This document shows positions 945 through 8,500 of a stretch of 38,099 nt of DNA, one piece after another. The DNA is from Escherichia coli (lineage in GTDB: Bacteria > Pseudomonadota > Gammaproteobacteria > Enterobacterales > Enterobacteriaceae). Where the stretch lies: NCBI RefSeq assembly GCF_003334335.1, contig NZ_QOWQ01000042.1. One strand, given 5' to 3'. The notes below the pieces were generated by a model, which saw only the letters and a list, made by a program, of their open reading frames with translations, searched no databases and was not told where the DNA came from. Both the position numbers and the translations under genes were made by a program. Each line of letters begins with the position of its first letter. Within the stretch, counting starts at the first letter, position 1.

Positions 945-1084
945 GGTTTATTACCGTTACTGTTGACAATGAGAACTGTTTTCATTTAGAAATGATTGAT
1001 GTCGAAAGCATCCTTTCGTTAGATTCTCCATTGGGATTACCTCCGCCAGTCTCCATTCCTGTTGCTGGCGGTTTTTTTCGTCTG

Positions 1085-3058
1085 TTATGCTGCTACGGCA
1101 TTCACACCAACAGTAAGACTTTCAATCAGCACAGGGTAAGTTGCCGCATTTCCGGTAATATCCGTAATTGCCAGCGCGTTGGCCTCAAAGGCTGCATTCG
1201 TCCATCTGGTCAGCGTAAACGGTTTTCCTGCTGCATTATCAAGCACCGGCGTGACGTTCAGCGAGCCACCACCCGGGAAGCGGAAAGTCAGCGTGTGCCA
1301 GTCGTGACCGAACGGACCATAACTACCAAGCCGCTGTGATGTGGTGTTTGCATGATACATCACATTGATGTTTGTTTTATCAGTCTGCAGATAGAAGGCC
1401 GCAATATAACCCTCCTCTGATTCCGCTCCCGGCCATCCACTACCGCGCCAGTAAATACCCGCAGAATATTGATTTGCAGAAGCATTGAGAGATACATCAT
1501 CGGGGATTTTAAAGCGCAGCGTGATTTCACCGCCGTTATCGAACAGCTCCTTCCCCTTACCGGCATCAATTGCGTGCGATACTTTCCAGGTCTTTTTCTG
1601 TGCAAGACCATTTTCTGGTTTTTCAAGACGAAGGGCTTTTTTACCTGAACCACTGTCACTGACCAGCGTGTTTTTGACATCTGTCAGCGTCCAGCCCTGC
1701 GAAGCCAGAGCGGCATTTTCCGCATTCACATCATAAGCCAGCACTGACTGTATCTTTGTCGGGACAACGGCTTCAGGCTGAGTATCGCCACTCTCCTGTG
1801 CTGGTTGCGATACGCCTCCGCCTGAAGAAACCGCGGCTTTTGTCACTTTCCCGGAAACAAAATCTGCCACTCTGCCCACATGCAGAAGAATGGCTGTTGC
1901 CAGACGGTCGGAAATAATTCCGCGACGCGCCCATGAACCAAAGTGGGTTTTACGATCGGATGTTGTCCAGCTCTTCGCATCCGTTCGTCCACCGGAACCA
2001 TAATACCCGATAGCCGGAATATCCGGGTCTTCTGACGGTTCATTGGTCCCGACTTTCTGACCATTGTCATCCATCATAAACGGCACAAAGAAGATATTTT
2101 TACCGGCTTTGGTTTTGTATGCGCCATAGACGGCATCGTATTGCGCTGAATACGTCTCCTTCCAGTAGTACGTCGTGTCACCACAAATCCAGGGCACCAG
2201 AGAAGGAGAAGCACCAGCGCACTGACCGGATACTCCCGCCAGGTCAGAACGGTATTTTTCCACCATGGCATCAAACATGGCGGGCTGACTGGCGTACGCT
2301 CCCTGTTTTAAATCAAACTCGCCCTGCATCCAGACAACACAAAGCAGTATGTTTTTGGGGTTTGCCTTCAGCGCGGCCTGAGTGCGTGTCAGCAGGTCTT
2401 TATACAACGGCTTATCAACGCCCCATCGTTCAGATTTATCCGACGCTCCTGAACTTTCACTGAACGTTCCGTCAGCACCGGCTGTAAACGCAGAGCCACC
2501 ACGACAGCACGGCACTAACAAAATACCCGCATTTTCCGGCATAAAGGGCAACAGCTTTTTGGCAATATGCAATCCCTGTCCGACACACCCATACTGCTCT
2601 GCGCTGGCTTTCGGATGAGAAAAACGGCTCAAATCCTGCACATCATGCAGGCAGTGGTCCGCCGGAATGATGTCGTTATATGCACAGGCCGCACCACCCG
2701 GTGTCACCGTACTGCGACGCGCCAGCTGTTTAATACGCGGGTCCGGACGGTCATATGTCTCCGGCAGCGGCAGGCCTTCACCATACGCCATGCCGTTTGA
2801 CTGTCCGGCCAGCGCAATGACAAAGTAATATTCTGGTTCAACAACAACAGTCCGGGTACCATCTCCCCCCGGTGAAACTACCGGAGAGGTCATATCCCCT
2901 TCAGCGACTATAGCCTGGATAAATTCAGCACCATAACCCGCGTTTGAGATAATCGGACTACCATAGGGTTGCCAGCCTTCCTTCAGTTTTTGCGTCAGTT
3001 TTCCTGCGAGGTCTGACGGCGATGATGCCCTGACCACGTCATAGTGTTTAAATGCCAT
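1085..3058 (-). CDS. nanS-p: NanS-p-like sialate O-acetylesterase (DUF1737 N-terminus plus SGNH-type esterase), prophage cargo
   Basis: 657 aa from MAFKHYDVVRASSPSDLAGKL, with GGAGG 5 nt upstream of the ATG at 3058. The N-terminus matches the DUF1737 signature of the large ORF that lies between the Q region and the lysis genes in Stx-type lambdoid prophages, as recalled. Confidence 0.8.
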   Translation of the reverse strand: MAFKHYDVVRASSPSDLAGKLTQKLKEGWQPYGSPIISNAGYGAEFIQAIVAEGDMTSPVVSPGGDGTRTVVVEPEYYFVIALAGQSNGMAYGEGLPLPETYDRPDPRIKQLARRSTVTPGGAACAYNDIIPADHCLHDVQDLSRFSHPKASAEQYGCVGQGLHIAKKLLPFMPENAGILLVPCCRGGSAFTAGADGTFSESSGASDKSERWGVDKPLYKDLLTRTQAALKANPKNILLCVVWMQGEFDLKQGAYASQPAMFDAMVEKYRSDLAGVSGQCAGASPSLVPWICGDTTYYWKETYSAQYDAVYGAYKTKAGKNIFFVPFMMDDNGQKVGTNEPSEDPDIPAIGYYGSGGRTDAKSWTTSDRKTHFGSWARRGIISDRLATAILLHVGRVADFVSGKVTKAAVSSGGGVSQPAQESGDTQPEAVVPTKIQSVLAYDVNAENAALASQGWTLTDVKNTLVSDSGSGKKALRLEKPENGLAQKKTWKVSHAIDAGKGKELFDNGGEITLRFKIPDDVSLNASANQYSAGIYWRGSGWPGAESEEGYIAAFYLQTDKTNINVMYHANTTSQRLGSYGPFGHDWHTLTFRFPGGGSLNVTPVLDNAAGKPFTLTRWTNAAFEANALAITDITGNAATYPVLIESLTVGVNAVAA

Positions 3059-3259
3059 TATTCCTCCCGGCAGGGATAGTGTATGCAATCAAGATAAGGT
3101 GCGGGCTGACGTCAGTCATGGACAAGGGTTCAGAAACAGGAGGATGACTACAGCCCGCAATACGAAAAAGACCATACAGTTGCGCAGAGTGATTACTATC
3201 AGGTATTATTCGCCAGCTGAAAATTGATCACTTCACGTTTTGTTGTTTATTCCTTGCCA

Positions 3260-3288
3260 CCCGCGCTTCCCGGCGCGGGCTTTTTTTT
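3260..3288 (+). terminator. intrinsic terminator hairpin readable on the plus strand
   Basis: cccgcgc-ttcccg-gcgcggg followed by TTTTTTTT. Back-to-back with the minus-strand terminator at 3301-3320. Confidence 0.45.
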
Positions 3289-3290
3289 AT

Positions 3291-3320
3291 CCAACAAGAA
3301 AGCCCCTCCGGAGAGGGGCT
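3291..3320 (-). terminator. intrinsic terminator in the late leader (copy 1)
   Basis: Perfect 8-bp stem agcccctc/gaggggct with a 4-nt loop; on the minus strand it is followed by TTCTTGTT. Confidence 0.5.
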
Positions 3321-3560
3321 GGAGAGTAGCGCTATGTACCGTTCATGCATGGTGCAGGGTGCCTCCCGGTGAGTTCAGTATCAGCACCTGAACCCGCACC
3401 AGAAAGGATAAGGGGTGTGACCAAACACCTGTCGCTGATATGCCCCTCCGCACAGGGGGATTCACCATGCCATATTTTTTTAACAAACTTCCCGCTGGCC
3501 AGACAATAATCGCCAGCCTGAATTGTGAGTAACGTGGCATTTTACGGGAAAACTGTTTTC

Positions 3561-3590
3561 TGCAGTAAAAAGGCCCGCCGGAGCGAGCCT
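3561..3590 (-). terminator. weaker terminator-like hairpin (partial repeat copy)
   Basis: aggcccgccggagcgagcct is an imperfect version of the 3301/3784 hairpin; followed on the minus strand by TTTTACTG. Confidence 0.3.
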
Positions 3591-3773
3591 GGAAGGATAG
3601 CGGTCATGTGATGCCGGTTTCCCGGTAACTCAGCATCGGTATCTGAGTCAACGTTTTCTCTACTGGGTCATTTCCGATACGTTCCGCCTTCCGGCAGACT
3701 TTCATCACGTCAGAAAATATAGCACCCTGAGTAACAGGACAGTACTCAGAATTCAGGAAACTGTGACACATCC

Positions 3774-3803
3774 TGCACAGAAAAGCCCCTCCGGAGAGGG
3801 GCT
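3774..3803 (-). terminator. intrinsic terminator in the late leader (copy 2)
   Basis: Hairpin agcccctccggagaggggct identical to 3301-3320; followed on the minus strand by TTTCTGTG. Confidence 0.5.
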
Positions 3804-4315
3804 GAAGTATAGCCTAATTTCTGTCTGTCGCATGGTGCCAGGTGCCTCCCGGTAAATTCAGCCTGGCTACTGAATTTGCATGTTCGCTGGATCATACACT
3901 TTGCCAGATGCCCCGCCGCTGAGGGGGATTCACCACGCGATGCAATTTTTAACAAATTCTCCGGCAGCCAGACAATCATCAAGCTGTGGAATTGTGAGGT
4001 ATTTAAAAATTTCGCAGCCTCTTGCCACCCGCTTTTCACAAAAATCGTATGTAGAAGGCCGCAGCGTAACTATCACTGATGAATTCAGGACACCCAGAGG
4101 CTACGGCTCAGTTTGGATTGTGGCGGCCGGAATCGAACCAGCTCCCATCGGTGCGCTGCCGATTACAATACGCGCGGCGATCCGCTACATGACTAGTATT
4201 TTCACAGTCGCCTGTCTGCTAGCTCGCCATTGAGCTTCACCACAACGATAAGAGCACTGCGCACACCTTTCACCAATTCCACGAGGTCTGCGGGTTCAAT
4301 GCTCTTACCTGTTGT

Positions 4316-4348
4316 GCAAACAAAAAGCCCCGACATTTCTGCCGAGGC
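4316..4348 (-). terminator. tR'-like terminator of the short late leader transcript
   Basis: Minus-strand hairpin ggcctcggcag-aaat-gtcggggc followed by TTTTTGTTTG, then TGCACAACAGGTAAGAGCATTGA, which matches the lambda sequence just past tR' as I recall it. Confidence 0.5.
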
Positions 4349-4455
4349 CTTTACCTAATCTAGCCAGTATGCCGATCCTAAATATTATCGACGACCGAGG
4401 TAAATCAGGATTTCTCTTTCGCTTCTCAGTGCGCTTTTGCTCCGAGCATACACAA

Positions 4456-4508: not shown

Positions 4509-5123
4509 TCATCCAGCAATCACTAGAAGTTCTTTCTCCAATTCTCGCTTCATTGCATAAAACATTTCTGAATCAAGGACCCTCTCGCACCACACGACCC
4601 GCCTCCGGCAATACTGAATATCAACTCCTGTTATCTGAGAAATCATCCTGGCGATATCTTGCGTGCTGTCGCGATTGCAATATCGCCTAATAGCTACATC
4701 ACGGACAGGGCTTTCACGATGAAAGGTCTCAACCATCACACGTTCAACGAAAGCAGCATCATCGGATTCTTTGGCGAGAGCAATGATATTACCTGCCGAT
4801 GACTGAGGGATGACCAGTTCTCGGGCTTTCTGATGGAGTTCATCTCCACGTAGTCCGTCTTCTTCATACAGACGCATGACAACAGACTCAATCTGCTTAG
4901 CTTTGTCATCGCTCCACTGACTGCGAATCATCAGTCGCCCAATAACGTTAATTGCACCACAAGGAGAATCATCACCAGCGTTAACATTTCCCCATACCTG
5001 TAGCATGTAGTGAACCCATGCTTTCTGACGAGAGTTAATGATTTTCTTCGGATGCCTCCATATGCGGCGGAAATGAGCATCATTAATAAAGTTAACCATG
5101 CCGAATACTGGGGTTAGCCGCAT
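4509..5123 (-). CDS. putative late-gene regulator occupying the Q position (204 aa, C-terminal HTH-like segment)
   Basis: Last gene before the late promoter/leader. C-terminal STQDIARMISQITGVDIQYCRRRV resembles a sigma-region-4/LuxR-type HTH. Not similar to lambda Q as recalled, so the call is positional. Confidence 0.4.
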   Translation of the reverse strand: MRLTPVFGMVNFINDAHFRRIWRHPKKIINSRQKAWVHYMLQVWGNVNAGDDSPCGAINVIGRLMIRSQWSDDKAKQIESVVMRLYEEDGLRGDELHQKARELVIPQSSAGNIIALAKESDDAAFVERVMVETFHRESPVRDVAIRRYCNRDSTQDIARMISQITGVDIQYCRRRVVWCERVLDSEMFYAMKRELEKELLVIAG

Positions 5124-5365
5124 CACAGCCCCCATCCTTTACAATGACACCACACTTCAAACATTCGTTTCACAACTTCACGGCAGTAGAAACCGTCAGC
5201 ATCACGTGTCAGGTCATAGCGATCTCCGTGCTTCAGTCTCATATAGCATTCGAATAATCTGTTCATATACTCTTCGCCATGAACTCCGCTATTACGCTGC
5301 TCATGCGCTTTTCCAGACGACCTGAATAAAGCCATGCGTTCAGGCACCTGCTGAATATCACGCAT
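5123..5365 (-). CDS. hypothetical Cys/His-containing small protein (80 aa) coupled to the Q-position gene
   Basis: MRDIQQVPERMALF...CREVVKRMFEVWCHCKGWGL. Its stop overlaps the next start (TGATG) and its start overlaps the ninH stop (ATGCGTGA). Confidence 0.4.
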   Translation of the reverse strand: MRDIQQVPERMALFRSSGKAHEQRNSGVHGEEYMNRLFECYMRLKHGDRYDLTRDADGFYCREVVKRMFEVWCHCKGWGL

Positions 5366-6880: not shown

Positions 6881-7555
6881 TCAGAATTCAAATTGTCTTG
6901 CCCGCAGGCTTTTCAGCATTGGCATGGCCCGCTGGATAACGGAACTTGACATGTCGAGACGTGTTACCTCCCTTAGTAGCGCGTCTCTGTTCTTCGTCAC
7001 CATGTAGATGGTCTCAAACGCAATGTCATACAGCTTGTTCGTGTATGAGGAGTTCAGCTCTTTCATAATGGGATACAGGTGTTTGCTGAGGTCCTGGGCT
7101 TTTTCCATCCAGAGCTGCATGTAGCAAAGGAGGATGATTTCTTCGGCTGTGAATTGTGGCTGAATCTGCGGCTGCTGTTCGGTTGGTGCTGTTTTTCCCT
7201 GGCTGAAATAGCAGTCTTCCAGTTTTTCGAACACTTCCCACGCCTGATCGGTTTCTAGCATTTTTGCGTGGCGGGCTGCGCCTCGTTCTGTCCAGAGGAT
7301 GAGCGAGCGGGTTTTGGGAGAGATTTTCACCTCATTTTGCGACTCGTTTAAAACTAGTCGCAAATTTCTGAGTTCATCACCAACAGCTTTAAAGAAGTGC
7401 TTTCCCTCAATAAACCGAGATTTATTTTCATGGTGATTCTGCTGTATACGGATTGTTTCTGTTCCATAAAGGCGGGCAAGCAACTCAGTTGTGATTACCG
7501 GAATCTGGTTATAGGTAACAGGGGAAAGGTTTTTGACAGAGATTTGAACAGTCAT
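6881..7555 (-). CDS. ORF6N-domain protein (antirepressor-like DNA-binding N-terminus, unknown C-terminus)
   Basis: N-terminus contains NHHENKSRFIEGKHFF and ILWTERGAARHAKMLETDQAWEVFEKL, hallmarks of the ORF6N/KilA-N-type fold. GAGGT RBS upstream of the ATG. Confidence 0.6.
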   Translation of the reverse strand: MTVQISVKNLSPVTYNQIPVITTELLARLYGTETIRIQQNHHENKSRFIEGKHFFKAVGDELRNLRLVLNESQNEVKISPKTRSLILWTERGAARHAKMLETDQAWEVFEKLEDCYFSQGKTAPTEQQPQIQPQFTAEEIILLCYMQLWMEKAQDLSKHLYPIMKELNSSYTNKLYDIAFETIYMVTKNRDALLREVTRLDMSSSVIQRAMPMLKSLRARQFEF

Positions 7556-7716
7556 AACGACCTCGCGTTTCGATAATTTTTACCTCACCACCTTCAGGTG
7601 CTAATCATAGTGGTGGCGAACTGTGCGGGGTTAGCACTACCGGTCGAAACATCCGGCGAGCCTTTCGGCTCCCCCACACAGCCCGCCATAAATCGCGAAT
7701 GTGACTGTGCTTAGCG

Positions 7717-7740
7717 CATAAAAAAACCGCCAGCGCGGTT
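7717..7740 (-). terminator. intrinsic terminator on the early-right strand
   Basis: Minus strand: aaccgcgctggcggtt followed by TTTTTTT, between the cargo island and the ORF6N gene. Confidence 0.45.
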
Positions 7741-7820
7741 ATGCACCGTTTCGATATCCGGGGTGCTAATCCCGACGCCAGATTTTGCTGGCGTGCGAAG
7801 AATATAATCCCGGATATGTG

Positions 7821-7860: not shown

Positions 7861-8202
7861 ATGTTTACTCTCATAAACTACATTATCGAATACTACAGTG
7901 ACGAGGTTGAAGCTGAGATCCTTTCTCTTCCTGAGACCTTACAAGCCCGGTACATTCGGTACACGGAGAAAATGCGTATTTACGGAGCTAATCTTGGTTC
8001 CCCGCATACAGAGGCATTTGGCGACGGTTTGTTTGAAATCCGCCTTAAGGGCTCGGAAGGCATAGGGCGTGTTTTTTACTGCACGCTAAAAGGAAAGCGA
8101 ATCATTATGTTGCATAGCTTTGTAAAGAAAACGCAAAAAACTCCACCTGCCGAGCTTAGAAAAGCTGAAACCAGAATGAAGGAGGTTAAGCATGACTGGT
8201 AA
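7861..8202 (+). CDS. gp49-like RelE/HigB-family toxin (DUF891-type)
   Basis: 113 aa with GDGLFEIRLKGSEGIGRVFYCTLKGKRIIMLHSFVKKTQKTPPAELRKAE, the gp49/HigB-like motif. Overlaps the downstream HTH gene by 11 nt. Confidence 0.7.
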   Translation: MFTLINYIIEYYSDEVEAEILSLPETLQARYIRYTEKMRIYGANLGSPHTEAFGDGLFEIRLKGSEGIGRVFYCTLKGKRIIMLHSFVKKTQKTPPAELRKAETRMKEVKHDW

Positions 8203-8500
8203 ACGTACCCCACCTACCATGACACACGATGAAATGGTAGAAAAAATGTTGTCTAACCCCGCAGTAAAAGCAGAATACGACGCCATCGCCGATGAATTCG
8301 CACTACTTGATGAAATGCTGGCAGCACGAAAAGAAGCTGGCTTAACCCAGGCTGAAGTTGCTGAACGTATGGGAACAAAAGCGACTGCGATAACCAGAAT
8401 GGAAAGCAATCTTGCATCAGGTACAAGCGGCCCATCATTTGCCACACTGAAAAAATTCGCCCGTGCTACAGGGAAAAAACTCCAGATCCGCTTCGTTTAA
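8192..8500 (+). CDS. XRE-family HTH antitoxin (HigA/gp48-like)
   Basis: 102 aa; EAGLTQAEVAERMGTKATAITRMES is an XRE-type HTH. Toxin-first gene order with overlap. Confidence 0.7.
   Translation: MTGKRTPPTMTHDEMVEKMLSNPAVKAEYDAIADEFALLDEMLAARKEAGLTQAEVAERMGTKATAITRMESNLASGTSGPSFATLKKFARATGKKLQIRFV

Follow-up and report, generated by a model that had tools for sequence, protein, structure and literature searches.

Which genetic information is carried in the slot between the late regulator gene Q and the esterase and lysis genes of a lambdoid phage, when annotation leaves that slot empty? The question is raised by a stretch of 38,099 nucleotides of Escherichia coli DNA (contig NZ_QOWQ01000042.1 of assembly GCF_003334335.1; the whole stretch is called the window hereafter), which belongs to a lambdoid phage with its late genes on the minus strand. 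A block of 0.9 kb just upstream of the esterase gene had been described in an initial annotation as diverged tandem repeats of the late leader, each furnished with its own terminator. The features then listed were all recovered at the coordinates given or a few bases away, and the location of the block between the tR'-like terminator and Q on one side and the esterase gene on the other has been borne out; its identity has not. The repeats are very probably small RNA (sRNA) genes of a curated family rather than leader repeats with terminators, and their hairpins the 3' ends of these genes. This assignment is carried by homology, gene architecture, promoter-element conservation, terminator hairpins and recurrence of the cassette.

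Three head-to-tail units on the minus strand, each ending in a hairpin and a U-tract, occupy positions 3290-3980 of the window. A repeat search identified a 37-nt core in three copies (3294-3330, 3564-3600 and 3777-3813, with spacings of 270 and 213) along with longer two-copy repeat families 468-483 nt apart, and self-BLAST aligned 3299-3511 with 3782-3980 (69% over 215 nt, E = 4e-16), a significant repeat structure in agreement with the tandem diverged repeats originally proposed. Their description as two copies of ~250 bp plus a partial third needs amendment, as the supposed partial copy is, by its Rfam match, a full-length but strongly diverged middle copy. Equally, the palindrome AGCCCCTCCGGAGAGGGGCT, thought to be present in each copy, is found in two of the three; it occurs exactly twice (3301-3320 and 3784-3803), with no occurrence expected in 100 shuffles, and the middle copy has another hairpin, AGGCTCGCTCCGGCGGGCCT (minus strand, 3571-3590). 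The hairpins of all three units have 8-bp stems (-15.6 to -17.3 kcal/mol), and on the minus strand U-rich tails come after them.

The identity of the units is indicated by matches to the Rfam family RF02076 (STnc100), which are collinear and in register on the minus strand at 3775-3968 (138.7 bits, E = 6e-32), at 3290-3499 (129.9 bits, E = 1e-29) and, for the middle unit, at 3564-3739 (30 bits, E = 4e-4). The gathering cut-off of the family is 47 bits, and the two outer copies, C and A, pass it over model positions 1-206. Gene C thus delimited spans 3776-3975, with a predicted transcript from ~3938 to ~3776 and its hairpin at 3803-3784; gene A spans 3293-3506, with a predicted transcript from ~3470 to ~3293 and its hairpin at 3320-3301; and gene B, the diverged paralogue in the middle, spans 3565-3744, with a predicted transcript from ~3709 to ~3565 and its hairpin at 3590-3571. 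Copy A folds into a closing helix, three internal hairpins and the terminator. The cluster of terminators in the leader is explained if the block consists of three or four sRNA genes.

Each unit is predicted to have its own promoter-like element, as judged from conserved TTGTCT and TGtTAAAAA motifs and from alignment with the 5' end of PasD2, a relative in enteropathogenic E. coli (EPEC). These motifs constitute a -35 element at 3975-3970 and an extended -10 element at 3954-3946 in gene C, and equivalent elements at 3506-3501 and 3485-3477 in gene A, while the extended -10 of gene B reads TGcTATATT (3724-3716). In copies A and C, GCAUGGUGAAUCC is the counterpart of the PasD2 5' end estimated from RNA sequencing (PMC8550237 Table S6), which comes 6-7 nt after TGtTAAAAA and ~17-18 nt after TTGTCT (TTGACT in PasD2); the transcript starts at ~3938 (C), ~3709 (B) and ~3470 (A) are placed on the basis of this alignment. 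Among 98 unique family members from viral contigs, the majority fraction amounts to 0.85 for the -35 and 0.89 for the extended -10, above the 0.71 of the intervening spacer, and within the transcribed part variation is greatest in the linker before the terminator (0.66-0.68); this set was gathered via an exact 15-nt motif of the 5' helix, so that conservation of that segment is overestimated. A conserved scaffold combined with a variable pre-terminator stretch and a terminator is the pattern expected of base-pairing sRNAs, and the variable stretch is a putative seed. Furthermore, in Salmonella LT2 RpoD and RpoN binding patterns have been observed by chromatin immunoprecipitation with exonuclease treatment at promoter regions of the multi-copy STnc100 genes (PMC10794520 Fig. 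6D).

What is known of the relatives fits the position and architecture of the cassette. STnc100 was first reported from Salmonella as a multi-copy prophage sRNA and is among the sRNAs most often annotated across bacterial genomes, with no function listed (PMC9029176). Its counterpart in enterohaemorrhagic E. coli, designated EcOnc27 in Sp5 of strain Sakai and sRNA103 in strain EDL933, is an Hfq-binding RNA encoded immediately downstream of stx2B (PMC12711010, PMC7873438, PMC12370729), confirmed by northern blot and by cross-linking and analysis of cDNA (PMC7873438, PMC12711010). Copies A and C match the covariance model of this family over its full length (130-139 bits) and share with EcOnc27 the location downstream of PR' and cargo and upstream of an esterase gene, the late-operon strand, the intrinsic terminator and a convergent antisense partner. 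They differ in that three tandem genes are present instead of one, stx genes are missing and the middle gene stays below the family cut-off. A 2026 preprint derives STnc100 and the EPEC sRNAs PasD1 and PasD2 from a shared ancestor and associates them with esterase genes (bioRxiv 10.64898/2026.05.13.724894); PasD has been verified by northern blot together with other Pas sRNAs, whose Hfq-dependent stability was assayed (PMC8550237), and PasD2 reaches 41.4 bits on the STnc100 model, which accords with the ancestry proposed. With PasD1/PasD2 of strain E2348/69 (homologues of EcOnc13) the units share a similar length (172-173 nt in PasD), the 5' end motif GCAUGGUGAAUCC, the predicted promoter type (TTGACT, 17 nt, TTAAAA) and the site between Q and a sialic-acid esterase, whereas the PasD seed CUUGUGAG is absent from the cassette and the PasD copies have been reported far apart in the genome and not in tandem. 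The site itself is that of the STnc100/PasD lineage, on the late strand between Q (4509-5135) and the esterase (1088-3058) and lysis genes.

On the opposite strand, the cassette is faced by a fourth gene. A plus-strand terminator (3260-3288), composed of an 8-bp stem at 3260-3279 and T8, ends 13 nt before the copy A hairpin (3320-3301), in accordance with the initial annotation, which had seen it abut the last minus-strand terminator. This back-to-back terminator pair is the junction of two convergent sRNA genes. The plus-strand gene (3101-3288) is a homologue of E2348C_1409.E2348C_1408.IGR, as window 3040-3300 is 87% identical over 260 nt to NC_011601 1444779-1445039 of E2348/69, a locus to which RNA interaction by ligation and sequencing (RIL-seq) maps a 182-nt sRNA that is recorded as an EcOnc08/21/42 homologue (Pearl Mizrahi et al., 2021). 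The target motif of that sRNA, GGCAAGG/GGCAGGG, is complementary to CCUUGCC, the putative seed located directly before the terminator here (3252-3258, plus strand). The homologue has the identical seed next to its terminator, and it too is convergent with an STnc100 copy ahead of a gene of esterase type: in PP6 of E2348/69 an STnc100 copy (75.5 bits) faces the EcOnc08/21/42-type sRNA. The -10 element, on the other hand, reads TAAAAT in E2348/69 and CAAGAT here, such that expression of the long form may be poor. For the 5' end there are two candidate positions, ~3101 by homology and ~3217 if a TTGCGC, 18 nt, TATTAT promoter is used. This well-conserved element, read by eye at 3204-3217 (plus strand) inside the antisense sRNA locus, would yield a short form of ~70 nt, recalling the short anti-sRNAs, besides the ~185-nt form expected from homology.

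Convergent sRNA pairs 3' of PR' at the moron insertion site have been described for at least eight prophages of enterohaemorrhagic E. coli Sakai, Sp3, 4, 5, 9, 10, 11, 15 and 17 (Tree et al., 2014; PMC4104026) and were later named dyads (PMC7873438). The window shows the same layout, with adjacent 3' ends on opposite strands downstream of PR' and both flanks homologous to known sRNAs. As in the pairs AsxR with EcOnc27 and AgvB with EcOnc06, opposite-strand sRNA genes with abutting terminators are placed between PR' or cargo and a conserved phage open reading frame (ORF); unlike in these, the antisense partner is of the EcOnc08/21/42 type and the sense partner is triplicated. An assignment of the antisense RNA to the AsxR/AgvB anti-sRNAs was considered and dismissed, since RF02702 and RF02703, which represent the conserved ~42-nt 3' region, gave no match at E <= 1, and an alignment with AsxR of the locus L118 shares the T-tract alone.

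How such genes would operate can be outlined with lambda as a guide. In the lambda lysogen PR' transcripts end at tR', and after induction Q-modified RNA polymerase ignores downstream terminators. As stated initially, late transcription has to pass three to four terminators and so needs antitermination; four, tR' and the three of the units, do face the late transcript, and since Q-modified polymerase ignores downstream terminators, standard Q antitermination suffices and the number is not an unusual demand. Reliance on Q also fits the deposition of an identical sequence as the phage genome PhiR5_2. The segment 3100-3980 would then be an sRNA gene cluster in the lambdoid 'moron' slot between Q/PR'/tR' and the esterase and lysis genes, in which C, B and A, as paralogues of the STnc100/EcOnc27/PasD lineage, lie head to tail on the late strand. 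Each would possess a predicted sigma-70 promoter with an extended -10, an intrinsic terminator of its own and, in between, a conserved scaffold of ~145-175 nt (a closing helix of 5' and 3' parts with internal hairpins) followed by a variable single-stranded stretch; the EcOnc08/21/42-type gene would oppose copy A terminator to terminator. In the lysogen, PR' transcripts would stop at tR' and the sRNAs be made from their own promoters, to act, by analogy with the characterised relatives, as Hfq-associated base-pairing regulators of host and phage mRNAs. The three hairpins would primarily set the sRNA 3' ends and secondarily keep constitutive transcription out of the esterase, holin and lysis genes, although their interrupted U-tracts leave room for partial read-through. 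After induction, Q-modified polymerase would pass tR' and the three sRNA terminators. Expression in this phage, dependence on Hfq, the targets and the insulating role are inferred.

A number of observations weigh against the units being sRNA genes of this kind. Interruptions in the U-tracts of all three terminators (UUUCUUGUU, UUUUCUGUG and UUUUUACUG) may render termination and Hfq binding inefficient, and copy A does not fold more stably than shuffled sequence (z = -1.2). BLAST of PasD2 and PasA against the window gave no similarity, the score of copy B lies below the RF02076 cut-off (30 versus 47 bits), and the mode of collection of the family set, with its inflated 5' helix, has to be taken into account. 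STnc100/EcOnc27 itself is without an established direct target, and Rfam-based surveys list no function for it. Finally, a consensus promoter scan of the window called no minus-strand promoter, as the -35 is weak and the -10 reads TAAAAA. This last result, together with the four terminators facing the late transcript and the mosaic nature of the slot, would equally suit a series of cis-acting leader terminators without independent transcripts, which arose by repeated recombination and strengthens dependence on Q. We regard such a series as quite unlikely, as the units match a curated sRNA family from end to end, relatives have been detected as discrete RNAs in uninduced lysogens, promoter elements are more conserved than the spacer between them, and a pure terminator role would leave ~150 nt of conserved scaffold upstream of each hairpin unexplained.

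Copy B deserves separate consideration, as by the curated threshold it is to be classed as a diverged relative and not as a member of STnc100. Its low score, its poor -35 and the loss of the terminator in one allele (L123/L124) are in line with a decaying relic beside a single functional copy, a fate that might have befallen one or more of the units. That relics are involved appears improbable, if slightly less so than a pure terminator series. In a second version of the cassette, 93.7% identical as a whole and with flanking copies that differ, copy B is unchanged (100% identity); a further allele with 86% identity preserves the 5' hairpin, in which a double change has turned one U-A pair into C-G and two single changes are wobble-compatible; over ~105 nt of the core the two alleles compared differ by a single substitution; and the -10, TGcTATATT, is the best of the three. 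The same allele bears on whether the block encodes small proteins, such as that of an ORF of 55 codons (3604-3771, minus strand) or of the ORF at 3901-4233. The 55-aa ORF matches phrog_23557 (E = 2e-45) and is a hypothetical protein in phage PhiR5_2, and coding sequences have been annotated over the region in phage records. In the 86% allele, though, the same changes alter four of seven codons of the overlapping 55-aa ORF, and its ATG is absent; substitutions are mostly non-synonymous with the RNA hairpin preserved, so that the phrog_23557 match reflects repeated ORF calling on an RNA gene, that is, merely near-identical calls in related phages. Of the other ORFs in the block two lack any family match and one has a marginal PHROG match (E = 0.004), and the Prokaryotic Genome Annotation Pipeline (PGAP) either annotates nothing in the region or labels fragments of it as pseudogenes. 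On the grounds of substitution pattern and start-codon loss the protein-coding interpretation was rejected, and it retains hardly any probability. Equally, copy B was not accepted as a PasD gene, given the empty PasD2 and PasA searches and a likeness confined to the shared scaffold. Within the sRNA gene cluster, copy B may represent a distinct sRNA subfamily with targets of its own.

The cassette is not a peculiarity of one phage. Of 5426 complete E. coli genomes, 570 match at least 80% of it (3290-4012), and 2679 match some part, at up to nine places per genome. The version with 93.7% identity follows another Q, a tRNA gene and DUF3927, and precedes IraM. Related arrays comprise four consecutive STnc100 copies, with a fifth 2 kb upstream, in L050 (6956-7937), and an array of STnc100, a B-type copy and STnc100 converging on an AsxR gene (63 bits) in L118 (4277-5024). 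Single-copy alleles of other phages resemble copy A more closely (up to 95% identity) than copy C does (78%); C-type alleles were seen solely inside cassettes. Recent tandem duplication is ruled out by these values, and the array is therefore old or assembled by recombination, which agrees with the recombination at the cargo slot suggested at the outset; the slot is a mosaic 'cargo' slot. The convergent sRNA layout is frequent in E. coli prophages and has been described there before, and the family and the architecture are published; the triplication in tandem and the B-type paralogue add modestly to this. Public records call hypothetical proteins across the sRNA genes and the neighbouring tRNA-like element (3604-3771, minus strand, and 3901-4233, plus strand).

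The surroundings of the cassette are those of a typical lambdoid late region. Escherichia phage PhiR5_2 (PV340546), a complete phage genome whose record names E. coli K-12 MG1655 as host, shares window 3200-4400 at 100% identity, and so do prophages of 17 complete E. coli genomes. A candidate PR' (TTGCTT, 17 nt, TATGTT; ~4482-4454, minus strand) was read by eye downstream of the Q gene (4509-5135, minus strand; phrog_753). The tR'-like intrinsic terminator, in which a 13-bp hairpin (4320-4352; -19 kcal/mol, z = -3.7) precedes UUUUUGUUUG, extends over 4310-4352 (minus strand), ~160 nt downstream of the Q gene and equivalent in position to the annotated Tr' of phage HK75; it had been placed within a few bases of this (4316-4348) by the initial annotation and was not among the hairpins listed by a simple terminator scan of the window. 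As with lambda PR'/tR' (6S RNA) and StxS, a short terminated PR' transcript from ~4452 to ~4318 would be expected, with everything downstream requiring Q-dependent read-through; different is the presence of three more terminators after tR' that belong to independent genes.

The leader proper is of lambda type. BLAST aligns window 4326-4296 with lambda 44777-44807, and the segment 4018-4122 (minus strand) is 86.7% identical over 105 nt to lambda 44936-45039 (E = 2e-31), which substantiates a similarity proposed in the initial annotation for 4040-4130. Over 4013-4326, identity to the part of the HK75 leader that extends from Tr' to the holin gene is 92.7%. A 17-nt direct repeat, CTTGCCACCCGC, at 3253 and 4021 was considered as an insertion scar and discarded, since the same motif within lambda's own leader hairpin makes it part of the lambda-type leader. 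In the same place, the late leader contains GCGGGTGGCAAG (minus strand; window 4021-4032, also 3253-3264) where lambda has GCGGGTGGCAGG inside the leader hairpin. It constitutes a second copy of the complement to the antisense sRNA seed (CUUGCC) and the start of its terminator, and agrees with GGCAAGG/GGCAGGG, the target motif given by RIL-seq for the EPEC homologue, though this may be chance. Downstream of the cassette, the esterase gene of NanS-p type (1088-3058, minus strand; phrog_143) encodes the Pfam domains DUF1737, SASA and DUF6645, the architecture of prophage sialate esterase; an NCBIfam search gave no match for Q or the esterase. The PhiR5_2 record splits the esterase into two coding sequences, while the ORF in the window (1084-3058, minus strand) is continuous. 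Holin and lysis genes follow further downstream.

Between tR' and the cassette, and not part of the latter, the late leader harbours a tRNA-like structured RNA (4118-4244, minus strand). Its parts are an acceptor stem of 7-9 bp, a D arm, an extra arm of ~53 nt after the D arm, an anticodon-like arm with an invariant 5-bp stem (AUCGG-CAGCGCA-CCGAU), and a T arm with the canonical T loop GGUUCGAUUCC. ARAGORN reported no tRNA at 4118-4244 or elsewhere in the window, and the Rfam tRNA model reaches 26.5 bits on the element, below its cut-off of 29, a score kept low by the ~74 nt separating D arm and T arm. In a canonical tRNA the anticodon arm directly follows the D arm, and positions 33 and 37 are occupied by U and a purine; here an extra arm intervenes, and the loop CAGCGCA has A33 and C37. 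Consequently, with ARAGORN negative and a sub-cut-off, non-canonical match, real tRNA genes in the leader, like ileZ, argN and argO of Stx phages, were dismissed.

The structure is preserved among relatives. A pattern scan located the element on at least 120 viral contigs in 76 distinct versions (homologues in L127-L247), and RNAalifold on 22 diverse versions recovers the acceptor stem, the D arm, the extra arm, the invariant 5-bp stem with its CAGCGCA loop, and the T arm. Across these 22 homologues 97.9% of cells are paired and 11 pairs display compensatory changes. On four of the five measures no shuffle attains the observed values; on the fifth, the count of further pair types, 6 of 500 shuffles do. 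Sliding the 3' partners by 1-3 columns reduces pairing to 32-45%. The element stands in at least 36 upstream and at least 42 downstream flank types, with contexts as different as the late leader of HK75, the vicinity of tail genes in a Skate-like virulent phage and the region upstream of N in a P22-like phage, and it is present, unannotated, in 175 complete E. coli genomes.

In Rfam the element has no family of its own, and its other matches are just weak ones to transfer-messenger RNA. A relation to the bacterial Y RNA YrlA was rejected, since in YrlA the T arm precedes the D arm and the ends form the Ro-binding stem (PMC4201824); the Rfam search of the element also gave no match of Y-RNA/YrlA type. 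No convincing similarity links it to the phage tRNA-Arg genes of L006 and L118, and a pseudoknot between the conserved CGCGCG and the CAGCGCA loop is not supported by the variant in L220, as read by eye. The chances appear evenly balanced that 4118-4244 belongs to an undescribed family of phage tRNA-like RNAs with a cloverleaf of native topology, spread among lambdoid, P22-like and Skate-like phages. Such an RNA could be a tRNA mimic, for example a decoy or a substrate for a tRNA-recognising host or phage enzyme; it could also be a processing signal for RNase P in long phage transcripts.

Two further features of the window lie outside the late leader. At 7609-7807 (minus strand), Rfam matches above cut-off to C4 antisense RNA (7609-7693), isrK (7720-7794) and c4-a1b1 (7755-7807) are located directly upstream of an ORF annotated as antirepressor (6881-7555), an ensemble that looks like a C4 RNA/antirepressor immunity module of P1/P7 type inside a lambdoid phage. 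A HigB/HigA toxin-antitoxin pair is annotated at 7972-8500 (plus strand) in the PhiR5_2 record; it lies in the nin/early-right region and is oriented against the phage genes around it.

For the picture of late-gene control nothing changes, as Q-dependent read-through of several terminators is expected. What changes is the reading of a 0.9-kb block that PGAP and phage annotators leave empty or filled with spurious 'hypothetical proteins', although about a tenth of complete E. coli genomes match at least 80% of it. The part of the leader most likely to yield something new is the tRNA-like RNA. Prophages can carry arrays of paralogous regulators which share a common scaffold and differ in the stretch before the terminator, and the sRNAs so arrayed provide a concrete set of RNAs in which effects on host physiology can be tested.

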